A DNA stretch of 64,000 nt from Psilocybe cubensis. Lineage: Eukaryota. The position numbers and the translations under genes are program-made. Position 1 is the first letter of the stretch. Every line of letters starts with the position of its first letter. Positions 26,201 through 44,462 of the stretch are shown here, piece by piece. The notes beneath the pieces are model-generated. The model ran no database searches and had not been told where the DNA came from. It saw nothing but the letters and a program-made list of their open reading frames with translations. The stretch lies in assembly GCA_017499595.2 (NCBI GenBank), contig CM038999.1, forward strand, positions 62,001-126,000, in the 5' to 3' direction.

Positions 26201-26239
26201 GTAAGCATACTGATAATCGACTTGCGGCCTTCCTTGCAG
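23212..26239 (-). CDS. Ankyrin-repeat array (3' part of the NLR, ~27 repeats of 34 aa)
   Basis: Uninterrupted ~1000-codon frame of G.TAL..AS..GH..V..LL..P..DVN.Q repeats. The ORF-track N-terminus (MPRVCL...) is LTR sequence. Confidence 0.92.
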
Positions 26240-27054
26240 TGATAAGGCTCGCAAATGAGCAGGTGTAGAAAACGCGCACTAAGGCAGACGCGCGGCACTC
26301 CAGTCTAAAAATAGCGCATACCAACCACATGGGCCGAGCGCACGGCATCAGCCGGCGTTGACTTGGCAGACACAGACTCGCGAAATAAGTGTACCGCACC
26401 GGGAAAATAAGTTGAGCAGGGACTCGTATCAACACATAAACCCAGAAAACATGGGCGCACTGTTGCCTGCAACGACCCCCGTATGAAACGAGACATATAC
26501 GCCAGGCTAGAAGTCTAACCGTGAGGAGAAATGCAGGAAAAGACGACGGACTCACGCTCTGCCCTGCCCAAGCGCCTAAACATTAAACCTGTAATTATCA
26601 CCCGCACTTCCAGCATTGGGTACCGAGCACAAACGTGTGCAATCACGCACTGGTGCGGATCAATGTGGGCGCGCACGGACGCGCCTCAAAGCATATAAAA
26701 GCCAGCCTAAGAAAGCAGAGGAGGGCAAGTAATCCCCGTGAGAGCTTCTATTGAGTAAAACGAGCTTGCCTTGCATTGCTTAGAAAAGATTGTGCACAGT
26801 TGTTTTGAGCATTGAGCCAGCATTGAACGCTGTTTGATAAAAATTTGATAAATCGGCATTGCATTGAAACAACTTGGAGCCTATTGCACGAAACTACCTA
26901 AATCGTAGATACTCATAATCTAAAAAAATATCGTAAAAACCTAAATATACGCTTATCCCTCCGAACTCAAAACCTCACTCACCAAATAACAAATTTGGTG
27001 AAGTTAGTGTGTGAAATCGAGTCATTCCAGACTCGCACTACACGAACCACTTCA
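26240..27054 (+). repeat. LTR 1 (815 bp)
   Basis: TGATAAGG...CCACTTCA; TATAAAA at 26694-26700; appears identical to LTR2 and LTR3. Confidence 0.96.
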
Positions 27055-27056
27055 TC

Positions 27057-27073
27057 TGGAGCCCACCGCGAGG
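27057..27073 (+). promoter_or_regulatory. Primer binding site (probably tRNA-Lys)
   Basis: TGGAGCCCACCGCGAGG, 2 nt after the LTR; TGG pairs with tRNA CCA. Lys identity inferred from the GGGCU-CCA 3' end of fungal tRNA-Lys. Second copy 36334-36350. Confidence 0.75.
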
Positions 27074-27447
27074 GGGGGTTGATTTAGATTCGGATAAACA
27101 TATATTGAAAAAGAAAACTCACGTTTTCAAAAATACCAAAAGCGACCAAAGTACCTGCTGAGGAAGCACCCCGGCGAAGCACACGAGAGAACGTTGCAAA
27201 GAACACTGCGCAGTCCTATTCGTTAGCAGAAGCCCGAGCACTTGCTCAAAAACAAAAAGCAGAAGCCACTGCTACCAAACCAAAAGCTAGGAGATCAATC
27301 CTAAGTAAAAAGCAGCCGTTAAAAGAGCTCGCAACCGCGCTAACTGAAATCGAAAGAACTGAGTTAAACGCATCAGCGGAAGAGTCATTTTATCAAACTG
27401 CTTCTGAAGAGATAAACCCACAATTTACGGTCACAAAGACATACAAA

Positions 27448-28830
27448 ATGAAAGATCTACCTACCACTAAAGAAAGGAGTGCGCCTAAATTTAATGAAAG
27501 CGAACCCACAGAGTTGTTAAGGTACCTAGAGGAGGTAGAAGAGTTGTTCAAAAAGTATGATGTAACTGAAGAAAAAGATAAAAAGAAGACAGCCTGTAAA
27601 TACGCGCCGGCGGCCACAGAGGCGGAATGGAAAGCGTTCAGTTCTTATGACAAAGGGACGTGGATAGAATTCAAACGAGACCTGATCGCCAGTTATCCAG
27701 AAGTGGTGTTGCTGCATAGAGGTTCGATTGCAACACTGGATAAATTGTGCAAAACCTACAAAGGAAATAACCAGTTGGAATCCAACGAAAGCACCCGCCT
27801 AGCAGCTTTCGTAAGACCTTTTCGCGCAGAAGCAGTAAAGCTTCTCAAGGATCCTGCGTTGGTATCCAACCGAGACCTGGTGACAAGGTTCATGGGATGT
27901 TTAAGTGACGAATTTGCGAGAAGAGTTAGCATCAAATTAGACTCTGACTCAGACACGAAAAATGCGATTAGAAAACTCACTGCTGCGGCACCCGCTGGGG
28001 ATGGAATTCCCCTAATCGAAGAATCGGCCTTCATCAGATGGGAGGACCGCCACAGCTTGCCTGATGTAATAGCAGCTGCTACCAATATCGCGGAAATGGG
28101 GGCTTGGTCACGTACGGGTGAGACTCGAGTAGTACCCAACGAACAACGCACATATGGGGCTGATCAGCTAGCTAGCACGAACCGCTCCGAGACCACTGTA
28201 AAATTGGAAGAAACGATTGCGCAACTCGCGGATACGGTACTGAACAGTGAGAAGCAACGGGCGGCGGAATATAGGCAACTGCAGGATGCACAGATGAGAC
28301 AGTATCAAGAGTTTCAAAGCTTTATGTCATCGTTCAGGCAAAATACGAACATGAACTCATCAGCGCCAGTTGGTAACAACTATGGGGCGCCGAGGGTAAG
28401 AACAAATCAGAATAATGGTTGCTACTATTGCAAAGAAGAAACACACCATATCTACGAGTGTCCCTACATCAAAAAGCATCTGGAACTTAAGTGGATCATA
28501 AAAAATCACGACAACCACATTAGGTTGCCGGGAGGTTCACAGATTCATACAGATGGCGTGAAATCTCGCAAAGACATAGTTGAACAACAGAACTATAAAA
28601 CACCAGGGGTGATACCAGCAGCAAAAATCAGTCAGATGTATAACCACCAAGAACGAGACTCACCAATGGACGAAGCTCACTACAGACTTCACAGGCAGTA
28701 CGAGCTTTCGAAATCGCTGAGATCGTTAACGGAAAACTTTGGTGAAGATGCATTGGAAGCAGTGCTAGAAGAGAGGCGGCGTTATGCGGTTAATGAAGAA
28801 GAAGAGCCAGCCCTGGCAAATTTTCCTTAA
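27448..28830 (+). CDS. gag: Gag, copy 1 (frame is open from 27109)
   Basis: 460-aa ORF after the PBS; RSAPKF N-terminal motif; CX2CX4HX4C zinc knuckle CYYCKEETHHIYEC. Confidence 0.92.
   Translation: MKDLPTTKERSAPKFNESEPTELLRYLEEVEELFKKYDVTEEKDKKKTACKYAPAATEAEWKAFSSYDKGTWIEFKRDLIASYPEVVLLHRGSIATLDKLCKTYKGNNQLESNESTRLAAFVRPFRAEAVKLLKDPALVSNRDLVTRFMGCLSDEFARRVSIKLDSDSDTKNAIRKLTAAAPAGDGIPLIEESAFIRWEDRHSLPDVIAAATNIAEMGAWSRTGETRVVPNEQRTYGADQLASTNRSETTVKLEETIAQLADTVLNSEKQRAAEYRQLQDAQMRQYQEFQSFMSSFRQNTNMNSSAPVGNNYGAPRVRTNQNNGCYYCKEETHHIYECPYIKKHLELKWIIKNHDNHIRLPGGSQIHTDGVKSRKDIVEQQNYKTPGVIPAAKISQMYNHQERDSPMDEAHYRLHRQYELSKSLRSLTENFGEDALEAVLEERRRYAVNEEEEPALANFP
28818..28824 (+). promoter_or_regulatory. 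Predicted -1 ribosomal frameshift site gag/pro (A AAT TTT)
   Basis: X XXY YYZ heptamer in gag phase one codon before the stop; the -1 frame is open into pro. Copy 2 at 38095-38101. Confidence 0.8.
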
Positions 28831-28838
28831 GTTCAAGG

Positions 28839-29867
28839 ATGGGGGCCCATCAGCCTAGGCGCACCTCACCTAGGTTCAATAAACAGCCTGAGCAGCCCCT
28901 TGAGAACGTAGAAAAAGAGGAGAATAAACTAGAACAAGCATCTACACAACCGGTAACATCGACCACCGAGCCAGCCGTCGATAGACAACCAAAAAGAAAA
29001 GAATTACCCTACATTGATGTTCCCCCTCTGAGCGAAGTACCACGGCCTATAGCCGACGCTCGACAGAACTGGGTAACACCGCCAAAAGGAAACGGTAGCC
29101 TGTATAATATCAATTCGCCGATAGAACAACAGGTCAACACGGAAAGCCTACACGAGAAAGCACTAGAGGCCGAGGTCACGCTTACTGTGCGAGAAATCCT
29201 CGGCAGTGCACCAGCCATTCGAGAAAAACTGAAGAAAGCCATTACACCGGTTAGAAAGCCAGTAACACCAATCGAGCCTGTGGCAGCATTCATGCTAGCG
29301 GGGGACGACAGCGGAAGCCTGAAAGCGGAGCACAAGGTGGGCGGGGATCCATACCTACAGCTATACCAGCTAGGGGAAACGGAGTTACCCACCGCCACGT
29401 ATGCAGGAAAAGAAGCAGAAAATCTGCGCGCGCTCTGGCCCAAGGTGAATGGGGTAGAAAGCGTGGAAGCAATTTTAGACAGCGGCTCTCAGATTGTGTC
29501 TATGGCAGAAGAAGTGGCGCTGCGAACAGGATTAAGTTGGGACCCAGACATCGTAATCAGCATGGAAAGTGCGAATAAGTCTATCAATAAGACACTAGGC
29601 TTAGCAAGAAACGTACCGTTTACGTTTGGAAATGTAACAGTATATTTACAAGTTCATATCATAAGGAATCCAGCATATACAATACTGTTGGGGCGCACAT
29701 TCGATTCGCTAACTCGCTCAAATGTACAGTCTGAAAATGATGGGTCCGCCACAATCAAATTGGAAGACCCAAACACAGGAAGAAAAGTAGTGGTGCCCAC
29801 CTTTGAAAGAGGGAAGGGTCCGCATCAGGTTGCAGAAGAAAGAAAACGCAAAGCTGAGGGTTTTTAA
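28839..29867 (+). CDS. pro: Aspartic protease ORF, copy 1
   Basis: AILDSGS catalytic motif and ILLGR motif; in the -1 frame relative to gag. Confidence 0.9.
   Translation: MGAHQPRRTSPRFNKQPEQPLENVEKEENKLEQASTQPVTSTTEPAVDRQPKRKELPYIDVPPLSEVPRPIADARQNWVTPPKGNGSLYNINSPIEQQVNTESLHEKALEAEVTLTVREILGSAPAIREKLKKAITPVRKPVTPIEPVAAFMLAGDDSGSLKAEHKVGGDPYLQLYQLGETELPTATYAGKEAENLRALWPKVNGVESVEAILDSGSQIVSMAEEVALRTGLSWDPDIVISMESANKSINKTLGLARNVPFTFGNVTVYLQVHIIRNPAYTILLGRTFDSLTRSNVQSENDGSATIKLEDPNTGRKVVVPTFERGKGPHQVAEERKRKAEGF
29858..29864 (+). promoter_or_regulatory. Predicted -1 ribosomal frameshift site pro/pol (G GGT TTT)
   Basis: Heptamer immediately before the pro TAA; the -1 frame is open through pol. 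Copy 2 at 39135-39141. Confidence 0.8.
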
Positions 29868-32800
29868 ATCACCTCGAGGATGGTCTAAAACAATCCCTGT
29901 TTGGTCAGATTCCAGGGGATAACGGAGAGGTGGCGGTCGTCTTTGAACTAGACGAACGAAACCAGGAACTCACAGTACAAGCATACCAGACAAAAACGGG
30001 CAGTTTCTCAAAGAATGAGGTGCGGGACGCATTTCTCTCTCAAGTTCTGGATCACAAACCGATGGATAGCAAGTCAAGAAACAGATTAACGCAGTATTTC
30101 CAAGGAAAAACTCACGAAGTATCAGCGAGGCCCGCTAAACCGCAGCCCACAGTAGTGGAAACGCGACAGACAAGGCTACTGGCCACCTACATGGGTAAAA
30201 AGAAATATAAACCCGTGGCACAAAAAGTCAGACCAATATTTGCGGACCTACCTGAAGAATTTAGGATAGTCCGGGACATTAAAGGCGACCCACTACAAGG
30301 GATGCCCCTTCTACCCACGCAACCACGGGAGTTTGCGCCAACAGGCCGCTATACCCAGGAACGAAAGGACGCAATGGATAAAGTCCATAAGGAAGGTTTC
30401 TTATGGCCTGAAGAACGCAAGCTAGTACATAATATAATCATGAATCAAGAACAAGCTTTTGCCTGGGACGATACGGAAAGAGGACACTTCAAAGAGAAAT
30501 ACTTTCCATCAATTAAGATACCCACGGTAGAACACACACCATGGGTATATAAAAACATACCTATTCCCCATGGCTTGTATGATGAAGTGTGTAAAATCAT
30601 CAAGTCCAAGCTGGCGTCGGGCGTATACGAGCTGTCAAACGCATCATATCGCTCAAGATGGTTCACAGTTCTAAAAAAGGACGGCAAGAGTCTTCGGATT
30701 GTCCACAGCCTGGAACCACTAAACGCTGTCACGATCGCGCACTCGGGAGTGCCACCGGGTACGGAAAGTTTAGCAGCACATTTTGCAGGCCGGGCGTGCG
30801 GGGGCATGTTCGACTTATACGTCGGTTACGATGAGCGAAAAATCGATGAGAAATACCGTGATATGACCACCTTCCAGACACCGTTTGGAGCAATGAGATT
30901 GGTTACTTTGCCTATGGGCTGGACCAACTCAGTACCCATATTTCACGATGATGTGACTTACATACTGCGAGACGAAATACCACATGTAACAGTACCATAC
31001 ATCGACGACGTAGCAGTCAGAGGGCCGGAGTCAAGATATGAGCATGAAGGAAGGTATGAAACTATTTCGGAAAATAAGGGGATCCGACGGTTTGTATGGG
31101 AGCACTTACAAAACGTGAATAGGGTCCTCCAGAGAATGAAATATGCTGGGGGTACGTTTTCGGGATATAAATCAGTTCTGTGCGCAGACGAGATCACGGT
31201 GGTCGGGCATCGCTGTACCTACGAAGGGCGTAAACCAATCGAGGAGCGAGTAAAAACCATACTAGACTGGGGAGAATGCGAAGACCTGGGTGATGTACGA
31301 TCTTTCTTGGGCATCTGCGGCACACTAAGAGCGTATATACCAAATTACACTGAACTAGCGTGGGACCTGCAAAAGCTCACTAAGAAACAAAACCCTTTCA
31401 AATGGGGAGATGCACAGCGACTAAGCATGTCCAAATTAAAAGAGGGAGTACGCAATGCGAAATGTTTGTTGCCAATAGACTACGAAAGCGGCGGCAACGT
31501 GGTTCTGGCCGTCGACGCCTCCTACATGGCTGTAGGTTTCTACATCTATCAAGAACCTGTAACAGAGAAAGACGCTATTAGATATGTAAAATTCGGTTCA
31601 ATCACGCTACAGGACCACGAAGCTAGATACTCACAGCCAAAGCGAGAGCTGCTAGGTCTCAAAAAGGCATTAAAGGAAAACAGAGAGTTGCTAATCGGGT
31701 GTCGCAAACTGATCGTGGAAATGGATGCTAAATTCATAGACGGCATGCTGCGCAATCCGGACATGATGCCTAACGCTACAATCAATCGGTGGATAGAAGA
31801 GATTATGTTATATCACTTCACCTTGCGACATAAAGCAGGGAAGACTTTCGGCCCCGATGGTTTGTCAAGAAGAAAAGCTCAGCCCACAGACGTTCCGCCC
31901 CGAGTACCGCCTGAAGAACAGACTGAGTGGGAGCTGCCTCCTACAAGCATGTTTGACGAGTTAGAACCAAAACCGTTGCCGGTGCAGGACTTTGCAGCAC
32001 AAATAGATATGAGGGGGGGATACTTACATGAAATAAAACTAAGTCCCACAAAGCCAAGTAATTGCCAAGACAGGCCAAGGAAACTCACGGAGTTCTTAGA
32101 CAACATTGAAGAACTAGGTGGAAAACTCCGTGGTGCAGCACGTTCAGTAGAAGATTTCAGACAAGAATTGGAAAGAGCCGACGAGTTTCGCGCTATGGAG
32201 CATGCCGCGTTTAACGTATGGTTGAAAAATCACGCAGGTACCCTAGATAAACCTCAACAGGTGTTGTTCCAACAATTAGTAGCAACCCTAGTTCTGCCGG
32301 AAGAGACAGTAGAAACCCAGAAATATGACGAGGAGCACAGAACCATGACCGCGGCGCGACAAGAGAACTTGTTGCCGGAAGTAAGGGAATGGTTGGAGAA
32401 TAAACACAAAATCAGCCGATCACTCACAGAACGTGACAAAGTAAAATTTGAACGTTTTGCACGGAGGTTCTTCCTTTTTGAAGGTCGACTGTATCTGCGA
32501 AGCTACAGCGCGGAACATCGACTCGTAGTAAGCAAAGATCGAAGAACTTACATGATGATAGCGGCGCATGACCATTGCGGCCACCGAGGCTTCTATGCCA
32601 CTAATCAATTATTGGTACAACGGTTCTGGTGGCCCGAGATGGAGAAAGACATAGCCAGGTATGTCAAAACATGTCATAGGTGTCAGGAAAGACAGCTAAC
32701 TATGCTGAAAATCCGGCCCACCTTGACGCATACCCCGTCATTATTCCAAGTCCTGCATACAGACTGCATGAAAATGACTCCACCGTCCAACGGTTGTTCA

Positions 32801-33763
32801 ACCATTGTTCATGGCCGGGACAACATGACCGTCTGGGTAGAAGGCAGAGGGTTGCGACGAGAAACGGGGCGAGCAATCGGGCAATGGTTGTGGGAAGATA
32901 TTGTGTGTCGCTGGGCGTGTTTATCTGTGATCGTCACTGACAACGGGACACCGTTTGTGGCGGCACTTAAGTGGCTAGAGACAAGGTACGGTATTAAGAA
33001 CATTCGCATATCACCGTATAACTCTAAAGCCAATGGAAAAATTGAACGCCCACACTGGGACATAAGACAAATGTTGTACAAAGTGTTGGGACCTAAGAAC
33101 TTACACAAATGGTTCTGGTTCCTCCATTTTGTCTTTTGGGCGGATAGAGTCACCGTCCGCCGACGTCTGGGTTGCTCACCCTACTTTATGGTGACGGCAG
33201 CCCACCCAACGTTGCCCCTAGATGTACAGGAAGCAACGTGGTTAGTAAAACCCCCAGAGGGTATGCTGAGTGAGGAGGAACTCATCACCTTCAGAGCGAA
33301 GGCTCTAGCAAAACATAAAGCGCAACTAGAACTGATGAAAGCTAAGATAGACCACGAAAAGTTAGCCAGATTGCGGAAGTACGAAGAGGATAACAAGGCT
33401 GTGATTAAGGACTACACCTTTGGTCCAGGCGACCTAGTGCTCATACGAAACACTGCAATTGAAGGGTCCTTGGATAGAAAGCTGAGAGCTAGATACCTTG
33501 GCCCAATGATCGTGGTACGCAGGACGCAGGGCGGCTCGTATATCGTAGCTGAACTGTCCGGCGCAGTATGGCAAAATAAGGTTGCTGCATTTAGGGTGGT
33601 CCCCTACTACGCAAGGGAGAAGTTAGTCCTGCCTAAACCAATTGAGGATTTGATTGACGTTTCAGAAGCAGGGCTGTCAAAAATAGAAGCAGCACCAGAA
33701 GAACAATTTACGGGTGCACCGGACTGGGCACATTTACGACTGGATATGACTGATGATAGTTAG
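29861..33763 (+). CDS. pol: Pol (RT, RNase H, integrase), copy 1
   Basis: LPMGW and YIDD (RT); VDASY (RNase H); H-H-C-C zinc motif, TDNG and KIER (integrase DDE); YLGP motif. No chromodomain evident. Confidence 0.96.
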   Translation, partial: FLNHLEDGLKQSLFGQIPGDNGEVAVVFELDERNQELTVQAYQTKTGSFSKNEVRDAFLSQVLDHKPMDSKSRNRLTQYFQGKTHEVSARPAKPQPTVVETRQTRLLATYMGKKKYKPVAQKVRPIFADLPEEFRIVRDIKGDPLQGMPLLPTQPREFAPTGRYTQERKDAMDKVHKEGFLWPEERKLVHNIIMNQEQAFAWDDTERGHFKEKYFPSIKIPTVEHTPWVYKNIPIPHGLYDEVCKIIKSKLASGVYELSNASYRSRWFTVLKKDGKSLRIVHSLEPLNAVTIAHSGVPPGTESLAAHFAGRACGGMFDLYVGYDERKIDEKYRDMTTFQTPFGAMRLVTLPMGWTNSVPIFHDDVTYILRDEIPHVTVPYIDDVAVRGPESRYEHEGRYETISENKGIRRFVWEHLQNVNRVLQRMKYAGGTFSGYKSVLCADEITVVGHRCTYEGRKPIEERVKTILDWGECEDLGDVRSFLGICGTLRAYIPNYTELAWDLQKLTKKQNPFKWGDAQRLSMSKLKEGVRNAKCLLPIDYESGGNVVLAVDASYMAVGFYIYQEPVTEKDAIRYVKFGSITLQDHEARYSQPKRELLGLKKALKENRELLIGCRKLIVEMDAKFIDGMLRNPDMMPNATINRWIEEIMLYHFTLRHKAGKTFGPDGLSRRKAQPTDVPPRVPPEEQTEWELPPTSMFDELEPKPLPVQDFAAQIDMRGGYLHEIKLSPTKPSNCQDRPRKLTEFLDNIEELGGKLRGAARSVEDFRQELERADEFRAMEHAAFNVWLKNHAGTLDKPQQVLFQQLVATLVLPEETVETQKYDEEHRTMTAARQENLLPEVREWLENKHKISRSLTERDKVKFERFARRFFLFEGRLYLRSYSAEHRLVVSKDRRTYMMIAAHDHCGHRGFYATNQLLVQRFWWPEMEKDIARYVKTCHRCQERQLTMLKIRPTLTHTPSLFQVLHTDCMKMTPPSNGCSTIVHGRDNMTVWVEGRGLRRETGRAIGQWLWEDIVCRWACLSVIVTDNGTPFVAALKWLETRYGIKNIRISPYNSKANGKIERPHWDIRQMLYKVLGPKNLHKWFWFLHFVFWADRVTVRRRLGCSPYFMVTAAHPTLPLDVQEATWLVKPPEGMLSEEELITFRAKALAKHKAQLELMKAKIDHEKLARLRKYEEDNKAVIKDYTFGPGDLVLIRNTAIEGSLDRKLRARYLGPMIVVRRTQGGSYIVAELSGAVWQNKVAAFRVVPYYAREKLVLPKPIEDLIDVSEAGLSKIEAAPEEQFTGAPDWAHLRLDMTDDS

Positions 33764-33866
33764 GACTCGGACATGAGCTACGTCGATGGTGGTCCAACTA
33801 TTATATTTGCAAAAACTCCTACGTAGGACAATAAGAGAAAACCAAATACAGTGGGTGCAAGAGGAT

Positions 33867-35185
33867 TTAAACTACAGGACCTTTGCCCTTCACGATGCGA
33901 AGTTGTTCGGCAATGTGTTGAAGAGTGGTGTCCAGCTGTTGCTGTGCAAACGCTACGCGAAATTCGTAATCCGCTTGCTCTAAACGGAGTTGTGCGAGGC
34001 GTCGCTCTGCAGCCTGCACTTCAAAGTTGGGAGAGGGGTCTGAGCAGAAATAGATAAGTCTGCAATCGGAACGGAAAGCAACAAGAATAAAAAGACATAC
34101 CATGGAGGACAGGAGGAATCTCCTGCCGGGCCTTTTTATTTGCATAGTGACGAGCCTTAGCGGCTTGAGGGGTGGATGGGTCAACACCGGCATCCTCATA
34201 CGATAATAACATGGTCTCAGCCCGCTGACAGGCACGTTAGGCAAATCTGAGGGTGAAATAAGATCCGCGAGGCATACCTTGGGGGCTTTTGAGCTACCTT
34301 CACTCGGGGCCACATTGCAGGTGATGATCTCGACAGAGCTATCATCAACTGACATTGCCTGGAGGTCACGGATAAGCTTAGTATACCATGCGCCAACCGC
34401 ACCACGACGAACCTCATCGATGTCATCCTACAGTGTAAGTCAGCACGATAGCACGTTGGAGGGGTACAGGGGCAACCTACTTCAGAGTCGATGATCGCTT
34501 TGGACTTTGGGGCCTTACTGCCTTTGTGTTTCTAAAAAGAAATAAAAACCAAGAGTGTCAGACACTACGACATAAGCGAATATGGAACAAGCCAGACGAA
34601 CCTTGGATTTGGAGGGTCGCACGGGTGCCTCTGTAACAGGACCTACAGGGACAACGGGCGGCGCAATGATGGGCGTAGAAACGACCACAGCAGTAGACTC
34701 AGTGCTGCCCGCAGAGAAGGCTGCGGATGGTGGAGCACTGGTCGGTGCTGGTCCCTCGCTTTTAGGTGCATTGCGTGCTTCCTGGATGAAACGACAGATC
34801 TCGCGGATCACTTGGAACTCCCGAGTATGCAAGGAAAGGTTTTGAGGGTGCGCATTGTGGATGTTGTGGTAGGCTTTGCGGATCTCGAAGCACAAGTTGG
34901 TGGCACCTTTGTTACGCTCGACCTTGGAAGCAGTCCATGTGGCTTCCTGAGAGAAGCACACAACAGGTCAGTAAGGAAAACGCAGGGTGGAAGCATAGAA
35001 CCAGCAACACAACCACTTACCACGAAACGCACGGCCGAATTTAACATGGTAATCAGCCCGGGGGCCTGAGCAATGTCCTTGATTACTGCAGTACCAGTCT
35101 TCCCACCAGCCACTACCAAGGGTACGGCAGCGGCCGACCGAGCATCCTCGACAGAGGGGACCAAGGGTTCAACGGGGACCGACAT
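33867..35185 (-). CDS. Spliced antisense accessory gene of the retrotransposon, 7 exons, 317 aa, unknown function (copy 1)
   Basis: Exons 35185-35021, 34946-34602, 34531-34481, 34427-34413, 34358-34278, 34224-34101, 34039-33867 = 954 nt, ATG to TAA with no internal stop. Six GT-AG introns of 53-74 nt, most with CTRAC/CTAAG branch-like sites. Confidence 0.82.
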
Positions 35186-35502
35186 GAAACAGGGTATGCT
35201 TTGGGAATCAAGGAAAGGAACAAGGGGGCACGACGACTCACCAAGAGGCAAGTTGCCCTCCCTTTTATCCTCTACCGCGGCCTTTAGTTGTTCCCAAGGA
35301 AAGGCGACGGGAAACCGTTGTGGGACAAGTTTCAGGAAAGAAAAAGAAGAGGGCAAACGATGACTCACGGAGAGGAGTAGGTCTCAGCCGGATGGCGCAA
35401 GACACGCCAAACCACGACCCAAGAACGACAGACCTCAGAAAAAAAAAAAAAAAAAAGGCAAGCACTGTACGAGATGTGCCTGACTGGGGACAGTCAGTAT
35501 GC

Positions 35503-35516
35503 AAGTTGGGGGGGGA
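35503..35516 (+). promoter_or_regulatory. Polypurine tract
   Basis: AAGTTGGGGGGGGA abutting LTR2; second copy 44780-44793. Confidence 0.85.
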
Positions 35517-36331
35517 TGATAAGGCTCGCAAATGAGCAGGTGTAGAAAACGCGCACTAAGGCAGACGCGCGGCACTCCAGTCTAAAAATAGCGCATACCA
35601 ACCACATGGGCCGAGCGCACGGCATCAGCCGGCGTTGACTTGGCAGACACAGACTCGCGAAATAAGTGTACCGCACCGGGAAAATAAGTTGAGCAGGGAC
35701 TCGTATCAACACATAAACCCAGAAAACATGGGCGCACTGTTGCCTGCAACGACCCCCGTATGAAACGAGACATATACGCCAGGCTAGAAGTCTAACCGTG
35801 AGGAGAAATGCAGGAAAAGACGACGGACTCACGCTCTGCCCTGCCCAAGCGCCTAAACATTAAACCTGTAATTATCACCCGCACTTCCAGCATTGGGTAC
35901 CGAGCACAAACGTGTGCAATCACGCACTGGTGCGGATCAATGTGGGCGCGCACGGACGCGCCTCAAAGCATATAAAAGCCAGCCTAAGAAAGCAGAGGAG
36001 GGCAAGTAATCCCCGTGAGAGCTTCTATTGAGTAAAACGAGCTTGCCTTGCATTGCTTAGAAAAGATTGTGCACAGTTGTTTTGAGCATTGAGCCAGCAT
36101 TGAACGCTGTTTGATAAAAATTTGATAAATCGGCATTGCATTGAAACAACTTGGAGCCTATTGCACGAAACTACCTAAATCGTAGATACTCATAATCTAA
36201 AAAAATATCGTAAAAACCTAAATATACGCTTATCCCTCCGAACTCAAAACCTCACTCACCAAATAACAAATTTGGTGAAGTTAGTGTGTGAAATCGAGTC
36301 ATTCCAGACTCGCACTACACGAACCACTTCA
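35517..36331 (+). repeat. LTR 2 (shared central LTR)
   Basis: Preceded by a PPT and followed by a PBS; no TSD around it. Confidence 0.96.
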
Positions 36332-36724
36332 TCTGGAGCCCACCGCGAGGGGGGGTTGATTTAGATTCGGATAAACATATATTGAAAAAGAAAACTCACG
36401 TTTTCAAAAATACCAAAAGCGACCAAAGTACCTGCTGAGGAAGCACCCCGGCGAAGCACACGAGAGAACGTTGCAAAGAACACTGCGCAGTCCTATTCGT
36501 TAGCAGAAGCCCGAGCACTTGCTCAAAAACAAAAAGCAGAAGCCACTGCTACCAAACCAAAAGCTAGGAGATCAATCCTAAGTAAAAAGCAGCCGTTAAA
36601 AGAGCTCGCAACCGCGCTAACTGAAATCGAAAGAACTGAGTTAAACGCATCAGCGGAAGAGTCATTTTATCAAACTGCTTCTGAAGAGATAAACCCACAA
36701 TTTACGGTCACAAAGACATACAAA

Positions 36725-38107
36725 ATGAAAGATCTACCTACCACTAAAGAAAGGAGTGCGCCTAAATTTAATGAAAGCGAACCCACAGAGTTGTTAAGGT
36801 ACCTAGAGGAGGTAGAAGAGTTGTTCAAAAAGTATGATGTAACTGAAGAAAAAGATAAAAAGAAGACAGCCTGTAAATACGCGCCGGCGGCCACAGAGGC
36901 GGAATGGAAAGCGTTCAGTTCTTATGACAAAGGGACGTGGATAGAATTCAAACGAGACCTGATCGCCAGTTATCCAGAAGTGGTGTTGCTGCATAGAGGT
37001 TCGATTGCAACACTGGATAAATTGTGCAAAACCTACAAAGGAAATAACCAGTTGGAATCCAACGAAAGCACCCGCCTAGCAGCTTTCGTAAGACCTTTTC
37101 GCGCAGAAGCAGTAAAGCTTCTCAAGGATCCTGCGTTGGTATCCAACCGAGACCTGGTGACAAGGTTCATGGGATGTTTAAGTGACGAATTTGCGAGAAG
37201 AGTTAGCATCAAATTAGACTCTGACTCAGACACGAAAAATGCGATTAGAAAACTCACTGCTGCGGCACCCGCTGGGGATGGAATTCCCCTAATCGAAGAA
37301 TCGGCCTTCATCAGATGGGAGGACCGCCACAGCTTGCCTGATGTAATAGCAGCTGCTACCAATATCGCGGAAATGGGGGCTTGGTCACGTACGGGTGAGA
37401 CTCGAGTAGTACCCAACGAACAACGCACATATGGGGCTGATCAGCTAGCTAGCACGAACCGCTCCGAGACCACTGTAAAATTGGAAGAAACGATTGCGCA
37501 ACTCGCGGATACGGTACTGAACAGTGAGAAGCAACGGGCGGCGGAATATAGGCAACTGCAGGATGCACAGATGAGACAGTATCAAGAGTTTCAAAGCTTT
37601 ATGTCATCGTTCAGGCAAAATACGAACATGAACTCATCAGCGCCAGTTGGTAACAACTATGGGGCGCCGAGGGTAAGAACAAATCAGAATAATGGTTGCT
37701 ACTATTGCAAAGAAGAAACACACCATATCTACGAGTGTCCCTACATCAAAAAGCATCTGGAACTTAAGTGGATCATAAAAAATCACGACAACCACATTAG
37801 GTTGCCGGGAGGTTCACAGATTCATACAGATGGCGTGAAATCTCGCAAAGACATAGTTGAACAACAGAACTATAAAACACCAGGGGTGATACCAGCAGCA
37901 AAAATCAGTCAGATGTATAACCACCAAGAACGAGACTCACCAATGGACGAAGCTCACTACAGACTTCACAGGCAGTACGAGCTTTCGAAATCGCTGAGAT
38001 CGTTAACGGAAAACTTTGGTGAAGATGCATTGGAAGCAGTGCTAGAAGAGAGGCGGCGTTATGCGGTTAATGAAGAAGAAGAGCCAGCCCTGGCAAATTT
38101 TCCTTAA
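36725..38107 (+). CDS. gag: Gag, copy 2
   Basis: Same translation as copy 1. Confidence 0.92.
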   Translation: MKDLPTTKERSAPKFNESEPTELLRYLEEVEELFKKYDVTEEKDKKKTACKYAPAATEAEWKAFSSYDKGTWIEFKRDLIASYPEVVLLHRGSIATLDKLCKTYKGNNQLESNESTRLAAFVRPFRAEAVKLLKDPALVSNRDLVTRFMGCLSDEFARRVSIKLDSDSDTKNAIRKLTAAAPAGDGIPLIEESAFIRWEDRHSLPDVIAAATNIAEMGAWSRTGETRVVPNEQRTYGADQLASTNRSETTVKLEETIAQLADTVLNSEKQRAAEYRQLQDAQMRQYQEFQSFMSSFRQNTNMNSSAPVGNNYGAPRVRTNQNNGCYYCKEETHHIYECPYIKKHLELKWIIKNHDNHIRLPGGSQIHTDGVKSRKDIVEQQNYKTPGVIPAAKISQMYNHQERDSPMDEAHYRLHRQYELSKSLRSLTENFGEDALEAVLEERRRYAVNEEEEPALANFP

Positions 38108-38115
38108 GTTCAAGG

Positions 38116-39144
38116 ATGGGGGCCCATCAGCCTAGGCGCACCTCACCTAGGTTCAATAAACAGCCTGAGCAGCCCCTTGAGAACGTAGAAAAAGAGGAGA
38201 ATAAACTAGAACAAGCATCTACACAACCGGTAACATCGACCACCGAGCCAGCCGTCGATAGACAACCAAAAAGAAAAGAATTACCCTACATTGATGTTCC
38301 CCCTCTGAGCGAAGTACCACGGCCTATAGCCGACGCTCGACAGAACTGGGTAACACCGCCAAAAGGAAACGGTAGCCTGTATAATATCAATTCGCCGATA
38401 GAACAACAGGTCAACACGGAAAGCCTACACGAGAAAGCACTAGAGGCCGAGGTCACGCTTACTGTGCGAGAAATCCTCGGCAGTGCACCAGCCATTCGAG
38501 AAAAACTGAAGAAAGCCATTACACCGGTTAGAAAGCCAGTAACACCAATCGAGCCTGTGGCAGCATTCATGCTAGCGGGGGACGACAGCGGAAGCCTGAA
38601 AGCGGAGCACAAGGTGGGCGGGGATCCATACCTACAGCTATACCAGCTAGGGGAAACGGAGTTACCCACCGCCACGTATGCAGGAAAAGAAGCAGAAAAT
38701 CTGCGCGCGCTCTGGCCCAAGGTGAATGGGGTAGAAAGCGTGGAAGCAATTTTAGACAGCGGCTCTCAGATTGTGTCTATGGCAGAAGAAGTGGCGCTGC
38801 GAACAGGATTAAGTTGGGACCCAGACATCGTAATCAGCATGGAAAGTGCGAATAAGTCTATCAATAAGACACTAGGCTTAGCAAGAAACGTACCGTTTAC
38901 GTTTGGAAATGTAACAGTATATTTACAAGTTCATATCATAAGGAATCCAGCATATACAATACTGTTGGGGCGCACATTCGATTCGCTAACTCGCTCAAAT
39001 GTACAGTCTGAAAATGATGGGTCCGCCACAATCAAATTGGAAGACCCAAACACAGGAAGAAAAGTAGTGGTGCCCACCTTTGAAAGAGGGAAGGGTCCGC
39101 ATCAGGTTGCAGAAGAAAGAAAACGCAAAGCTGAGGGTTTTTAA
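38116..39144 (+). CDS. pro: Aspartic protease ORF, copy 2
   Basis: Same translation as copy 1. Confidence 0.9.
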   Translation: MGAHQPRRTSPRFNKQPEQPLENVEKEENKLEQASTQPVTSTTEPAVDRQPKRKELPYIDVPPLSEVPRPIADARQNWVTPPKGNGSLYNINSPIEQQVNTESLHEKALEAEVTLTVREILGSAPAIREKLKKAITPVRKPVTPIEPVAAFMLAGDDSGSLKAEHKVGGDPYLQLYQLGETELPTATYAGKEAENLRALWPKVNGVESVEAILDSGSQIVSMAEEVALRTGLSWDPDIVISMESANKSINKTLGLARNVPFTFGNVTVYLQVHIIRNPAYTILLGRTFDSLTRSNVQSENDGSATIKLEDPNTGRKVVVPTFERGKGPHQVAEERKRKAEGF

Positions 39145-42100
39145 ATCACCTCGAGGATGGTCTAAAACAATCCCTGTTTGGTCAGATTCCAGGGGATAAC
39201 GGAGAGGTGGCGGTCGTCTTTGAACTAGACGAACGAAACCAGGAACTCACAGTACAAGCATACCAGACAAAAACGGGCAGTTTCTCAAAGAATGAGGTGC
39301 GGGACGCATTTCTCTCTCAAGTTCTGGATCACAAACCGATGGATAGCAAGTCAAGAAACAGATTAACGCAGTATTTCCAAGGAAAAACTCACGAAGTATC
39401 AGCGAGGCCCGCTAAACCGCAGCCCACAGTAGTGGAAACGCGACAGACAAGGCTACTGGCCACCTACATGGGTAAAAAGAAATATAAACCCGTGGCACAA
39501 AAAGTCAGACCAATATTTGCGGACCTACCTGAAGAATTTAGGATAGTCCGGGACATTAAAGGCGACCCACTACAAGGGATGCCCCTTCTACCCACGCAAC
39601 CACGGGAGTTTGCGCCAACAGGCCGCTATACCCAGGAACGAAAGGACGCAATGGATAAAGTCCATAAGGAAGGTTTCTTATGGCCTGAAGAACGCAAGCT
39701 AGTACATAATATAATCATGAATCAAGAACAAGCTTTTGCCTGGGACGATACGGAAAGAGGACACTTCAAAGAGGAATACTTTCCATCGATTAAGATACCC
39801 ACGGTAGAACACACACCATGGGTATATAAAAACATACCTATTCCCCATGGCTTGTATGATGAAGTGTGTAAAATCATCAAGTCCAAGCTGGCGTCGGGCG
39901 TATACGAGCTGTCAAACGCATCATATCGCTCAAGATGGTTCACAGTTCTAAAAAAGGACGGCAAGAGTCTTCGGATTGTCCACAGCCTGGAACCACTAAA
40001 CGCTGTCACGATCGCGCACTCGGGAGTGCCACCGGGTACGGAAAGTTTAGCAGCACATTTTGCAGGCCGGGCGTGCGGGGGCATGTTCGACTTATACGTC
40101 GGTTACGATGAGCGAAAAATCGATGAGAAATACCGTGATATGACCACCTTCCAGACACCGTTTGGAGCAATGAGATTGGTTACTTTGCCTATGGGCTGGA
40201 CCAACTCAGTACCCATATTTCACGATGATGTGACTTACATACTGCGAGACGAAATACCACATGTAACAGTACCATACATCGACGACGTAGCAGTCAGAGG
40301 GCCGGAGTCAAGATATGAGCATGAAGGAAGGTATGAAACTATTTCGGAAAATAAGGGGATCCGACGGTTTGTATGGGAGCACTTACAAAACGTGAATAGG
40401 GTCCTCCAGAGAATGAAATATGCTGGGGGTACGTTTTCGGGATATAAATCAGTTCTGTGCGCAGACGAGATCACGGTGGTCGGGCATCGCTGTACCTACG
40501 AAGGGCGTAAACCAATCGAGGAGCGAGTAAAAACCATACTAGACTGGGGAGAATGCGAAGACCTGGGTGATGTACGATCTTTCTTGGGCATCTGCGGCAC
40601 ACTAAGAGCGTATATACCAAATTACACTGAACTAGCGTGGGACCTGCAAAAGCTCACTAAGAAACAAAACCCTTTCAAATGGGGAGATGCACAGCGACTA
40701 AGCATGTCCAAATTAAAAGAGGGAGTACGCAATGCGAAATGTTTGTTGCCAATAGACTACGAAAGCGGCGGCAACGTGGTTCTGGCCGTCGACGCCTCCT
40801 ACATGGCTGTAGGTTTCTACATCTATCAAGAACCTGTAACAGAGAAAGACGCTATTAGATATGTAAAATTCGGTTCAATCACGCTACAGGACCACGAAGC
40901 TAGATACTCACAGCCAAAGCGAGAGCTGCTAGGTCTCAAAAAGGCATTAAAGGAAAACAGAGAGTTGCTAATCGGGTGTCGCAAACTGATCGTGGAAATG
41001 GATGCTAAATTCATAGACGGCATGCTGCGCAATCCGGACATGATGCCTAACGCTACAATCAATCGGTGGATAGAAGAGATTATGTTATATCACTTCACCT
41101 TGCGACATAAAGCAGGGAAGACTTTCGGCCCCGATGGTTTGTCAAGAAGAAAAGCTCAGCCCACAGACGTTCCGCCCCGAGTACCGCCTGAAGAACAGAC
41201 TGAGTGGGAGCTGCCTCCTACAAGCATGTTTGACGAGTTAGAACCAAAACCGTTGCCGGTGCAGGACTTTGCAGCACAAATAGATATGAGGGGGGGATAC
41301 TTACATGAAATAAAACTAAGTCCCACAAAGCCAAGTAATTGCCAAGACAGGCCAAGGAAACTCACGGAGTTCTTAGACAACATTGAAGAACTAGGTGGAA
41401 AACTCCGTGGTGCAGCACGTTCAGTAGAAGATTTCAGACAAGAATTGGAAAGAGCCGACGAGTTTCGCGCTATGGAGCATGCCGCGTTTAACGTATGGTT
41501 GAAAAATCACGCAGGTACCCTAGATAAACCTCAACAGGTGTTGTTCCAACAATTAGTAGCAACCCTAGTTCTGCCGGAAGAGACAGTAGAAACCCAGAAA
41601 TATGACGAGGAGCACAGAACCATGACCGCGGCGCGACAAGAGAACTTGTTGCCGGAAGTAAGGGAATGGTTGGAGAATAAACACAAAATCAGCCGATCAC
41701 TCACAGAACGTGACAAAGTAAAATTTGAACGTTTTGCACGGAGGTTCTTCCTTTTTGAAGGTCGACTGTATCTGCGAAGCTACAGCGCGGAACATCGACT
41801 CGTAGTAAGCAAAGATCGAAGAACTTACATGATGATAGCGGCGCATGACCATTGCGGCCACCGAGGCTTCTATGCCACTAATCAATTATTGGTACAACGG
41901 TTCTGGTGGCCCGAGATGGAGAAAGACATAGCCAGGTATGTCAAAACATGTCATAGGTGTCAGGAAAGACAGCTAACTATGCTGAAAATCCGGCCCACCT
42001 TGACGCATACCCCGTCATTATTCCAAGTCCTGCATACAGACTGCATGAAAATGACTCCACCGTCCAACGGTTGTTCAACCATTGTTCATGGCCGGGACAA

Positions 42101-43040
42101 CATGACCGTCTGGGTAGAAGGCAGAGGGTTGCGACGAGAAACGGGGCGAGCAATCGGGCAATGGTTGTGGGAAGATATTGTGTGTCGCTGGGCGTGTTTA
42201 TCTGTGATCGTCACTGACAACGGGACACCGTTTGTGGCGGCACTTAAGTGGCTAGAGACAAGGTACGGTATTAAGAACATTCGCATATCACCGTATAACT
42301 CTAAAGCCAATGGAAAAATTGAACGCCCACACTGGGACATAAGACAAATGTTGTACAAAGTGTTGGGACCTAAGAACTTACACAAATGGTTCTGGTTCCT
42401 CCATTTTGTCTTTTGGGCGGATAGAGTCACCGTCCGCCGACGTCTGGGTTGCTCACCCTACTTTATGGTGACGGCAGCCCACCCAACGTTGCCCCTAGAT
42501 GTACAGGAAGCAACGTGGTTAGTAAAACCCCCAGAGGGTATGCTGAGTGAGGAGGAACTCATCACCTTCAGAGCGAAGGCTCTAGCAAAACATAAAGCGC
42601 AACTAGAACTGATGAAAGCTAAGATAGACCACGAAAAGTTAGCCAGATTGCGGAAGTACGAAGAGGATAACAAGGCTGTGATTAAGGACTACACCTTTGG
42701 TCCAGGCGACCTAGTGCTCATACGAAACACTGCAATTGAAGGGTCCTTGGATAGAAAGCTGAGAGCTAGATACCTTGGCCCAATGATCGTGGTACGCAGG
42801 ACGCAGGGCGGCTCGTATATCGTAGCTGAACTGTCCGGCGCAGTATGGCAAAATAAGGTTGCTGCATTTAGGGTGGTCCCCTACTACGCAAGGGAGAAGT
42901 TAGTCCTGCCTAAACCAATTGAGGATTTGATTGACGTTTCAGAAGCAGGGCTGTCAAAAATAGAAGCAGCACCAGAAGAACAATTTACGGGTGCACCGGA
43001 CTGGGCACATTTACGACTGGATATGACTGATGATAGTTAG
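39138..43040 (+). CDS. pol: Pol, copy 2
   Basis: As copy 1 except FKEEY vs FKEKY. Confidence 0.96.
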   Translation, partial: FLNHLEDGLKQSLFGQIPGDNGEVAVVFELDERNQELTVQAYQTKTGSFSKNEVRDAFLSQVLDHKPMDSKSRNRLTQYFQGKTHEVSARPAKPQPTVVETRQTRLLATYMGKKKYKPVAQKVRPIFADLPEEFRIVRDIKGDPLQGMPLLPTQPREFAPTGRYTQERKDAMDKVHKEGFLWPEERKLVHNIIMNQEQAFAWDDTERGHFKEEYFPSIKIPTVEHTPWVYKNIPIPHGLYDEVCKIIKSKLASGVYELSNASYRSRWFTVLKKDGKSLRIVHSLEPLNAVTIAHSGVPPGTESLAAHFAGRACGGMFDLYVGYDERKIDEKYRDMTTFQTPFGAMRLVTLPMGWTNSVPIFHDDVTYILRDEIPHVTVPYIDDVAVRGPESRYEHEGRYETISENKGIRRFVWEHLQNVNRVLQRMKYAGGTFSGYKSVLCADEITVVGHRCTYEGRKPIEERVKTILDWGECEDLGDVRSFLGICGTLRAYIPNYTELAWDLQKLTKKQNPFKWGDAQRLSMSKLKEGVRNAKCLLPIDYESGGNVVLAVDASYMAVGFYIYQEPVTEKDAIRYVKFGSITLQDHEARYSQPKRELLGLKKALKENRELLIGCRKLIVEMDAKFIDGMLRNPDMMPNATINRWIEEIMLYHFTLRHKAGKTFGPDGLSRRKAQPTDVPPRVPPEEQTEWELPPTSMFDELEPKPLPVQDFAAQIDMRGGYLHEIKLSPTKPSNCQDRPRKLTEFLDNIEELGGKLRGAARSVEDFRQELERADEFRAMEHAAFNVWLKNHAGTLDKPQQVLFQQLVATLVLPEETVETQKYDEEHRTMTAARQENLLPEVREWLENKHKISRSLTERDKVKFERFARRFFLFEGRLYLRSYSAEHRLVVSKDRRTYMMIAAHDHCGHRGFYATNQLLVQRFWWPEMEKDIARYVKTCHRCQERQLTMLKIRPTLTHTPSLFQVLHTDCMKMTPPSNGCSTIVHGRDNMTVWVEGRGLRRETGRAIGQWLWEDIVCRWACLSVIVTDNGTPFVAALKWLETRYGIKNIRISPYNSKANGKIERPHWDIRQMLYKVLGPKNLHKWFWFLHFVFWADRVTVRRRLGCSPYFMVTAAHPTLPLDVQEATWLVKPPEGMLSEEELITFRAKALAKHKAQLELMKAKIDHEKLARLRKYEEDNKAVIKDYTFGPGDLVLIRNTAIEGSLDRKLRARYLGPMIVVRRTQGGSYIVAELSGAVWQNKVAAFRVVPYYAREKLVLPKPIEDLIDVSEAGLSKIEAAPEEQFTGAPDWAHLRLDMTDDS

Positions 43041-43143
43041 GACTCGGACATGAGCTACGTCGATGGTGGTCCAACTATTATATTTGCAAAAACTCCTACG
43101 TAGGACAATAAGAGAAAACCAAATACAGTGGGTGCAAGAGGAT

Positions 43144-44462
43144 TTAAACTACAGGACCTTTGCCCTTCACGATGCGAAGTTGTTCGGCAATGTGTTGAAG
43201 AGTGGTGTCCAGCTGTTGCTGTGCAAACGCTACGCGAAATTCGTAATCCGCTTGCTCTAAACGGAGTTGTGCGAGGCGTCGCTCTGCAGCCTGCACTTCA
43301 AAGTTGGGAGAGGGGTCTGAGCAGAAATAGATAAGTCTGCAATCGGAACGGAAAGCAACAAGAATAAAAAGACATACCATGGAGGACAGGAGGAATCTCC
43401 TGCCGGGCCTTTTTATTTGCATAGTGACGAGCCTTAGCGGCTTGAGGGGTGGATGGGTCAACACCGGCATCCTCATACGATAATAACATGGTCTCAGCCC
43501 GCTGACAGGCACGTTAGGCAAATCTGAGGGTGAAATAAGATCCGCGAGGCATACCTTGGGGGCTTTTGAGCTACCTTCACTCGGGGCCACATTGCAGGTG
43601 ATGATCTCGACAGAGCTATCATCAACTGACATTGCCTGGAGGTCACGGATAAGCTTAGTATACCATGCGCCAACCGCACCACGACGAACCTCATCGATGT
43701 CATCCTACAGTGTAAGTCAGCACGATAGCACGTTGGAGGGGTACAGGGGCAACCTACTTCAGAGTCGATGATCGCTTTGGACTTTGGGGCCTTACTGCCT
43801 TTGTGTTTCTAAAAAGAAATAAAAACCAAGAGTGTCAGACACTACGACATAAGCGAATATGGAACAAGCCAGACGAACCTTGGATTTGGAGGGTCGCACG
43901 GGTGCCTCTGTAACAGGACCTACAGGGACAACGGGCGGCGCAATGATGGGCGTAGAAACGACCACAGCAGTAGACTCAGTGCTGCCCGCAGAGAAGGCTG
44001 CGGATGGTGGAGCACTGGTCGGTGCTGGTCCCTCGCTTTTAGGTGCATTGCGTGCTTCCTGGATGAAACGACAGATCTCGCGGATCACTTGGAACTCCCG
44101 AGTATGCAAGGAAAGGTTTTGAGGGTGCGCATTGTGGATGTTGTGGTAGGCTTTGCGGATCTCGAAGCACAAGTTGGTGGCACCTTTGTTACGCTCGACC
44201 TTGGAAGCAGTCCATGTGGCTTCCTGAGAGAAGCACACAACAGGTCAGTAAGGAAAACGCAGGGTGGAAGCATAGAACCAGCAACACAACCACTTACCAC
44301 GAAACGCACGGCCGAATTTAACATGGTAATCAGCCCGGGGGCCTGAGCAATGTCCTTGATTACTGCAGTACCAGTCTTCCCACCAGCCACTACCAAGGGT
44401 ACGGCAGCGGCCGACCGAGCATCCTCGACAGAGGGGACCAAGGGTTCAACGGGGACCGACAT
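43144..44462 (-). CDS. Spliced antisense accessory gene, copy 2
   Basis: Copy 1 coordinates +9277; ORF-track fragments identical. Confidence 0.82.

Follow-up and report, generated by a model that had tools for sequence, protein, structure and literature searches.

The window analysed here is a stretch of 64,000 nucleotides of the Psilocybe cubensis contig CM038999.1 (positions 62,001 to 126,000 of the forward strand). It holds a long terminal repeat (LTR) retrotransposon of Ty3/Gypsy type that carries, between pol and the 3′ LTR, an intron-bearing gene on the strand opposite to pol. We conclude, with a probability of about 0.85, that a Ty3/Gypsy lineage has this antisense gene as an integral accessory gene, passed on by vertical descent, and that the encoded protein is under purifying selection; that it is a real, element-borne protein-coding gene under selection is a little more certain still. 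A preliminary description of the window, made from the sequence alone, had proposed an accessory protein of a fungal Gypsy element, and this proposal is supported by the conserved place and strand of the gene in related elements, by its introns, by the ratio of nonsynonymous to synonymous substitution (dN/dS) and by its co-divergence with pol.

Structure of the antisense gene

The element is present in two tandem units, and the features that belong to the antisense gene are the following:

33867-35185, minus strand: coding sequence of the antisense accessory gene of the first unit, between pol and the 3′ LTR
43144-44462, minus strand: second, identical copy of the antisense gene (JR316_0001573)
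34359-34412, minus strand: "intron 4" of the preliminary description, 54 nt, in frame and stop-free, best read as coding
35262-35268, minus strand: TATA-like ATAAAAG, candidate internal promoter element

The best model has the exons 35185-35021, 34946-34602, 34531-34481, 34427-34278, 34224-34101 and 34039-33867 and gives a protein of 335 aa. Its ATG is at 35185 and its stop at 33867-33869, that is, 1422 and 104 nt, respectively, from the pol stop at 33763. The preliminary description had joined seven exons by six introns into a protein of 317 aa. The GT..AG intervals that it used (74, 70, 53, 54, 53 and 61 nt) reproduce a stop-free frame exactly, and the best model retains five introns. The fourth interval and the 15-nt microexon that came with it were not upheld. 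We considered as strict intron-like sites those with a GTNNG[TC] donor, a CTNA[CT] branch site and a YAG acceptor, 42-110 nt in length; the gene region contains 23 of them on the minus strand versus 1 on the plus strand.

An independent model of the gene, P0001, was deposited as JR316_0001571 and JR316_0001573 for the two tandem copies. It is 335 aa long and equals the 317-aa frame plus 18 residues, which are precisely the translation of "intron 4". The same 18 residues align with similar hydrophobic stretches ahead of a QAMS(V/I)D motif in two library homologues (P0002 and P0003, described below) and also with the FLxxLFKKAM amphipathic helix of metagenome homologues. None of the relatives aligned has an intron at this position, and the AlphaFold model places the residues inside a helix (187-212). 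The deposited model, the homologue alignment, the lack of an intron there in any relative and the helix together lead to a gene of six exons and five introns, so that "intron 4" is probably wrong; since this stretch of 54 nt keeps the frame and is bounded by GT and AG, it could still be removed in an alternative splice form. We consider it likely that the gene is expressed and spliced as modelled, in the 335-aa form.

Other details of the preliminary description were found in place: the two GS(S)KAPK repeats and the C-terminal helical stretch are both present in the translated frame, and the ATAAAAG motif, said to lie about 80 nt upstream, is at 35268-35262, 83 nt from the ATG.

Homologues in protein libraries and in related elements

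Exon 2 (115 aa) was used as a phmmer query against a library of 1.84 billion representative proteins with a cut-off of E ≤ 1e-3. Three matches were obtained: P0001 itself (335 aa, 100% identical to exon 2 over residues 56-170), P0002 from Agrocybe pediades (D9613_012836; 407 aa, 37% identical) and P0003, a second P. cubensis protein (354 aa, 36% identical). The last two are deposited as hypothetical proteins, and the three proteins are collinear across their full length. Word-index protein searches returned only self or near-self matches (one with P0001 and two with profile A1, built from P0001-P0003). Repeat masking probably hides most relatives from protein databases, and this is probably why only three library relatives were found.

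Scans with the accessory-protein profile gave 138 pattern matches in metagenome contigs and 21 in viral contigs, none of which was confirmed; the pol scan of viral contigs gave 14 pattern matches, also with none confirmed. The pol scan of metagenome contigs returned 35 related loci, the well-matched ones 50-65% identical to the pol of the window and the weakest at 37% (L033) and 24% (L034). Twenty of these loci had enough sequence downstream of pol for testing.

When profile A1 was compared with the 3501 six-frame open reading frames (ORFs) of the loci, 42 weak domain rows were obtained (E 0.003-10), 39 of which were antisense to pol, lay downstream of it (in circular contigs, wrapped around the ends) and followed the order of the profile. 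We then used a purpose-built, ad hoc spliced protein-to-DNA aligner, which was checked on the window with the paralogue P0003 (34% identical): introns 1, 2, 3 and 5 came out, "intron 4" was kept as coding, two spurious introns were called and one donor was shifted. Single-protein spliced alignment scored higher on the minus strand than on the plus strand in 18 of the 20 regions. Spliced ORFs of at least 230 aa, enumerated with at most 6 introns under relaxed rules, could be built in 17/20 regions on the minus strand and in 3/20 on the plus strand.

With a profile that included first-round gene models, spliced alignment gave minus-strand scores of 345-590 in 12 loci. Five high-scoring loci were outside that profile (L003, 398; L011, 443; L013, 455; L018, 448; L024, 345). 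Minus-strand scores of 45-154 were reached by seven further loci, and all plus-strand controls stayed within 22-34. A homologue at the equivalent place antisense to pol, with a score above all controls, is thus found in 19 of the 20 related loci.

The contigs of L002, L011, L013 and L018 begin and end with the same 126-409 bases, and their units of 10.1-11.3 kb include the antisense gene. The self-closing contigs are complete elements assembled as circles, via collapsed LTRs or tandem arrays of the kind present in the window.

Position, introns and motifs of the gene family

The antisense gene lies tail-to-tail with pol, upstream of the polypurine tract and the 3′ LTR, and has four to five short GT..AG introns; as a rule, pol ends about 100-250 nt from the stop and about 1.3-1.45 kb from the ATG of the gene. 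Its stop is 126-247 nt and its ATG 1177-1463 nt past the end of the pol match in 13 of the 15 tabulated loci. The two outliers are L018 (1746 and 2912 nt), where the pol match is cut by the contig wrap, and L026 (2388 nt for the ATG and 1730 nt for the stop), where the model is partial.

Five exons and four introns of 45-73 nt, with phases 0, 0, 0 and 1 in all models, characterise the main group of relatives. Introns 2, 3, 5 and 6 of the window gene (numbered as in the preliminary description) correspond to these four, and their phases are identical. Intron 2 (phase 0) is in the same linker as its counterpart, 8-11 residues before KSKA; intron 3 (phase 0) precedes its counterpart by about 9 residues; intron 5 (phase 0) is just past the basic KAPxK(K) motif, which is the same place if an alignment indel of 4 residues is allowed; intron 6 (phase 1) is in the same variable linker ahead of the C-terminal helix. 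Intron 1 occurs only in the P. cubensis/Agrocybe type, where an insertion of 8 residues is found at the same point.

Proteins of the family are about 310-335 aa long, and their first 115 aa or so form a helical bundle in which W, F and R are invariant. Several motifs are common to all groups: W...(V/T)(N/D)L(V/C)F.(I/L)R in the N-terminal part, a basic-then-acidic KSKAxIDS(D/E)D, an amphipathic helix that ends in (K/Q)AM and is followed by a basic cluster and KR(P/A)E...L.Y, a second basic cluster K(K/R)A(R/K), and a long C-terminal helix with (D/E)F(R/H). In the alignment A2, where fragments of exons stood next to full-length proteins, those from the C-terminus were misplaced, and its use was confined to the rows of exons 3 and 4.

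Upstream of the ATG, TATAAA or TATTTA is present at 39-41 nt in L010, L011, L013, L016 and L019, at 38 and 13 nt in L018 and at 66 nt in L021; no such motif was found upstream of the ATG in L003 and L007. Together with the ATAAAAG of the window, these TATA-like motifs are suggestive of an internal promoter of the antisense gene.

Purifying selection and co-divergence with pol

Pairwise dN/dS was 0.06-0.18 in 11 of the 12 element pairs. Synonymous distances above about 1 are saturated and the ratios that depend on them are rough; L019/L004 is the clean pair, with a dN/dS of 0.12 and a synonymous distance (dS) of 0.37. Codon positions 1, 2 and 3 of this pair differ by 0.050, 0.034 and 0.210, respectively, and the introns by 0.249. 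Insertions and deletions in exons are of whole codons, those in introns of any length. A lack of conservation of frame and splice sites in related elements had been set beforehand as a result that would refute the preliminary description; both turned out to be conserved: the four introns are equivalent with identical phases, and dN/dS is in the range above.

Accessory-protein identity tracks pol identity (Spearman 0.92; Mantel r 0.95, p 1e-4; 14 elements, 91 pairs), with the accessory protein diverging faster than pol:

pol identity ~82%: accessory-protein identity ~70-75%
pol identity ~66%: accessory-protein identity ~41%
pol identity ~55%: accessory-protein identity ~24%

Such co-divergence is expected if the gene descended vertically within the element and is not expected of a recent capture or of a chance frame. 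The option of a captured host gene, which the preliminary description had also listed, found no support as a recent capture.

Domains and fold of the accessory protein

The preliminary description had called for a sequence and structure search of the protein; it returned the homologues P0002 and P0003 and no informative fold match. Precisely, Pfam gave nothing above noise for P0001-P0003 and 33 exon translations of relatives, and among these same sequences no PMD, transposase-28 or SMC domain was matched at E ≤ 1. No bZIP family of Pfam was matched at E ≤ 1 either, and no recognised basic region precedes the C-terminal helix. A profile search of the PDB found no sequence relative at E < 0.1, and the ESM Atlas gave no usable match by features, with structure rows at a template-modelling (TM) score ≤ 0.26.

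The full-length AlphaFold model is poor, with a predicted local distance difference test (pLDDT) value of 57.6; it shows helices in the N-terminal part, two disordered linkers (118-186 and 212-251) and one more helix over residues 282-329. For the N-terminal domain of a relative, a prediction from 15 sequences gave a bundle of helices with a pLDDT of 77.2 and a predicted TM score (pTM) of 0.69. Fold searches with the full-length model reached a best Foldseek E of 0.19 and a best VIA Z of 9.7, the latter on designed helical proteins; those with the N-terminal domain reached a Foldseek E of 1.0 and a VIA Z of 7.2. The basic clusters look like putative nuclear-localisation signals, and KSKAxIDSDDE looks like a putative acidic/serine interaction motif.

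The element and its insertion site

The positions 26240-45608 form a single block with the order LTR-internal-LTR-internal-LTR. Its features, other than those of the antisense gene, are the following:

26236-26239 (left) and 45609-45612 (right): target-site duplication GCAG, 4 bp, at the outer ends of the whole block
26240-27054, plus strand: 5′ LTR, 815 bp, TG...CA
27057-27073, plus strand: putative primer-binding-site-like TGG... stretch, 2 nt past the LTR, proposed from position alone
27109-28830, plus strand: gag-like ORF1, 573 aa from stop to stop; second-unit copy deposited as JR316_0001572
28797-29867, plus strand: protease ORF, -1 frame relative to gag; Pfam gag-asp_proteas (5.1e-07) and Asp_protease_2
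29858-33763, plus strand: pol ORF (reverse transcriptase, RNase H, integrase), -1 frame relative to protease
35508-35516, plus strand: polypurine-tract-like GGGGGGGGA (G8A), adjoining the LTR at 35517
35517-36331, plus strand: middle LTR, common to both tandem units
36386-43040, plus strand: gag-pro-pol of the second unit, two differences from the first unit
44794-45608, plus strand: 3′ LTR of the block

By its domain order (protease, reverse transcriptase, RNase H, integrase), and by its TG...CA LTRs with a short target-site duplication and with stretches like a primer-binding site and a polypurine tract next to them, the element is classed as a Ty3/Gypsy (Metaviridae-type) LTR retrotransposon. 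Pfam matched RVT_1 at residues 288-452 of the pol ORF, RT_RNaseH at 516-651 and Integrase_H2C2 at 892-946. The integrase region (32498-33760) has a clear H2C2 zinc domain and a weak match to the rve core (E 0.026, below the cut-off); this weak core match occurs although the element looks recently active. The Chromo domain, which marks chromoviruses, was not matched at E ≤ 5 in the last 421 aa of pol, a search in which the HMMER filters may drop weak matches. The gag-like ORF matched no Pfam family, with a sub-threshold trace of a zinc knuckle at 437-452, and its word-index protein search returned one match, its own deposited product JR316_0001572, and no other relative. Shortly before the upstream frame ends, a canonical slippery heptamer is found in register at both junctions, A_AAT_TTT (28818-28824) for gag and protease and G_GGT_TTT (29858-29864) for protease and pol, which suggests two programmed -1 ribosomal frameshifts in gag-pro-pol, as in some retroviruses.

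The three LTRs, of 815 bp each, start at 26240, 35517 and 44794, run from TGATAA to CTTCA and are mutually identical. A self-comparison at a shift of 9277 bases showed that 26240-36331 is identical to its copy except at 2 positions, which are A/G differences (30497 and 30511 in the first unit, 39774 and 39788 in the second). These two differences argue against a pure duplication by the assembly. The tandem arrangement, with a shared middle LTR, a single 4-bp duplication around the whole block and nearly identical units, points to unequal LTR-LTR exchange after insertion, or to the integration of a dimer.

The block lies inside the coding region of a host ankyrin-repeat gene on the minus strand (23212-26239 and 45613-46145; Ank_2, E 7e-171), and when the block and one GCAG were removed in silico an uninterrupted host frame of 1186 aa was obtained. 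Identical LTRs, the target-site duplication and the restored host frame together indicate a genuine and very recent insertion.

Two further observations can be mentioned here. Tandem repeats of 204 nt at 23476-25137 can be read as part of the ankyrin-repeat region of the host gene. Positions 35439-35456 are 18 consecutive A, which read as 18 T in the direction of the antisense gene; they precede its ATG by about 255-270 nt and, on the plus strand, the polypurine run by about 60 nt.

Comparison with known systems

Antisense genes of LTR retrotransposons have precedents. PMC8365987, PMC7264820 and PMC4227169, which cite the original work (2011, Virology 417:248), describe brtn as an additional antisense gene in Boty, a Ty3/Gypsy element of Botrytis/Sclerotinia; it is placed between pol and the 3′ LTR in PMC7264820 and given as absent from the current B05.10 annotation in PMC8365987. 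The likeness to the P. cubensis gene extends to a fungal Ty3/Gypsy host element, antisense orientation and the same place, and no function is assigned to either gene. The two differ in host, an Ascomycota lineage versus an Agaricomycete, and they were compared by description only; the P. cubensis family has a structure of four to five introns that is conserved across diverged elements. Exon 2 matched no Botrytis protein among the 1.84 billion representatives, a library in which brtn may not be included.

Plant elements carry antisense ORFs between pol and the 3′ LTR, called aORF-3R. The relevant passages of PMC7264820 and PMC4408406 list gene23 of maize Grande, rice RIRE2, ORF4 of Silene Retand and ORF2 of Phaseolus PvRetro13, and describe these ORFs as present in most copies, conserved among related families and without clear database similarity. 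For Grande gene23, the same passages report an own upstream promoter, which was shown, and nuclear localisation, with a suspected role in the nucleus. They do not describe a conserved set of spliceosomal introns, quantified dN/dS or co-divergence for the plant ORFs. The review PMC7264820 gives the functions of antisense ORFs as unknown and calls for attention to antisense and spliced transcripts. The P. cubensis gene shares with aORF-3R both position and antisense orientation, in the window and in the related loci, and like them it is conserved, here in 19 of 20 metagenome loci. It differs in that it belongs to another kingdom and its protein is unrelated; the PMD, transposase-28 and SMC domains of some plant ORFs were not found here.

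HBZ of HTLV-1 is a spliced antisense accessory gene at the 3′ end of its element, and its product has a C-terminal helix of coiled-coil type. According to PMC7264820, the antisense promoter of HBZ and of other retroviral antisense genes is located in the 3′ LTR. The P. cubensis gene is likewise antisense, intron-bearing and at the 3′ end, with a C-terminal helix of coiled-coil type. It differs from HBZ in that no bZIP or other DNA-binding family was detected, there is no homology, and the promoter is predicted in unique internal sequence rather than in the LTR.

The same logic underlies the his3AI and neoAI reporters, where an intron antisense to the element RNA survives in the genomic RNA, splicing being confined to the transcript made in antisense direction from the DNA copy. 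Those reporters are engineered, whereas the P. cubensis case is natural and old, with four introns kept down to a pol identity of about 55%.

The preliminary description had regarded the gene as part of an undescribed system. This holds in part: the class of antisense ORFs is already known from plants and Boty, and we rate as new the protein family, the host group and the conserved multi-intron structure with measured selection. Neither a basidiomycete case nor this protein family and intron structure turned up in full-text searches, which covered one open-access library.

Alternative explanations

The simplest objection is that the frame is open by chance and bounded by chance GT..AG pairs, or that it is an artefact of gene prediction. 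Relaxed splice rules do give long spliced ORFs on the plus strand of the window region as well, and "intron 4" shows that in-frame GT..AG intervals arise by chance; the homologues, the selection, the intron phases, the co-divergence and the distance between plus-strand controls (22-34) and minus-strand scores (345-590) leave this objection practically no weight. Another possibility is a passenger, that is, a host gene captured by one or a few elements and doing nothing for them. The capture of host sequences by LTR elements is known (PMC7264820), and P0002 and P0003 are deposited as ordinary hypothetical proteins. Against this, 19 of 20 related elements, with a pol only 50-65% identical to that of the window, have the gene in the equivalent place and orientation; its divergence follows that of pol, comparison of element copies shows purifying selection on it, and its only relatives in the library of 1.84 billion representatives are three fungal hypothetical proteins. 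We therefore regard a passenger as very unlikely and a recent capture as largely refuted; a capture, if any, would be ancient, with the gene maintained since. It is equally improbable that the active product is the antisense RNA, acting through double-stranded or small interfering RNA formed with the 3′ part of the genomic RNA or through transcriptional interference, with the frame incidental. Since the gene and pol converge and their stops are only about 100-250 nt apart, both transcripts probably overlap at their 3′ ends; according to PMC7264820, micropia has non-coding antisense RNAs, and the idea is under discussion for antisense ORFs. Against it stand substitutions of a protein-coding type (position 3 far above position 1, and 1 above 2, with the low dN/dS already given), the whole-codon indels of exons versus those of any length in introns, and amino-acid motifs that are kept at 22-27% overall identity. 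An RNA role in addition to that of the protein may exist.

The remaining alternative concerns what the protein does. Ty1 p22 limits transposition, and by analogy the accessory protein could be a factor of self-restriction or copy-number control. Purifying selection and linkage to the element fit this role equally well, less damage to the host would let the element persist longer, and the protein has a long helix of the self-association type. On the other side, no similarity to the element's own gag was seen, in a comparison limited to Pfam, and a dedicated restriction gene would be hard to maintain against cheater copies that lose it. The data do not tell a positive from a negative role of the protein. 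We hold self-restriction to be unlikely, if still a live alternative.

Several points weigh against an integral accessory gene under selection. The pair L028/L026 has a dN/dS of 0.43, that is, relaxed constraint. L015 scores 25 and has no trace of an antisense gene downstream of an otherwise similar pol, with no minus-strand ORF of at least 70 aa there (L015:5994-7643), and the copy in L024 (2501-3699), with an in-frame stop and many substitutions, reads as a decaying one. Relative to the main group, intron B of the window gene is displaced by some 9 residues and intron C by some 4, so that the introns share a position only approximately. Some junctions in the gene models of relatives are uncertain: the models of L004 and L011 read through intron A, and those of L013 and L016 leave the last intron ambiguous. 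Transcription, splicing, promoter and poly(A) site of the antisense gene are all inferred. The fold matches are uninformative, being generic helical bundles within the noise level of the search tool for such folds; no fold was assigned, and none of the Pfam, PDB and fold searches points to a specific biochemical function. Trans-complementation among copies might also maintain a gene whose benefit goes to the host or to other copies and not to its own element.

Proposed role of the antisense gene

Under our preferred reading, an accessory gene inherited with the element, the introns would persist because they are antisense in the genomic RNA and so neither recognised nor removed before reverse transcription. 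Integrated copies would be transcribed from an internal promoter in the unique stretch of about 330 bp upstream of the ATG, and the antisense transcript, ending near or within the end of pol, would be spliced by the host. The protein would probably be a trans-acting factor of the element's own life cycle: the frame is kept in a gene that evolves only inside a replicating element, and for this reason the protein probably aids the propagation of the element.

As a committed but tentative guess, which is possible rather than probable, we propose a nuclear adaptor or regulator that may self-associate through its coiled coil. Its targets might be the transcription or silencing of the element, or nuclear steps of the pre-integration complex such as entry, as has been proposed for antisense ORFs of plants such as Grande gene23.

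A more far-reaching idea, which we consider doubtful, starts from reports that basidiomycetes need introns for good mRNA accumulation and that their poorly spliced transposon RNAs enter RNA interference. Antisense orientation is the one in which a retroelement can keep introns, and this lineage might exploit it, the antisense gene being the only robustly expressed message of the element and its product a nuclear counter-defence or transcription factor against host silencing. If true, the gene would be a fungal counterpart of the accessory genes of complex retroviruses.

Significance

Antisense extra genes of LTR retrotransposons are known but unexplained, and the gene described here, deposited as an ordinary "hypothetical protein", adds to them a protein family without known relatives. 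It is a natural and long-lived example of how antisense orientation preserves introns in a retroelement, and dN/dS, co-divergence with pol and intron phases provide quantitative evidence of selection acting on the element. Its identical LTRs make the P. cubensis element very young, and with its position inside a host gene this makes it a good candidate for an active element. Since related elements have kept the antisense gene under selection, the element probably needs it.

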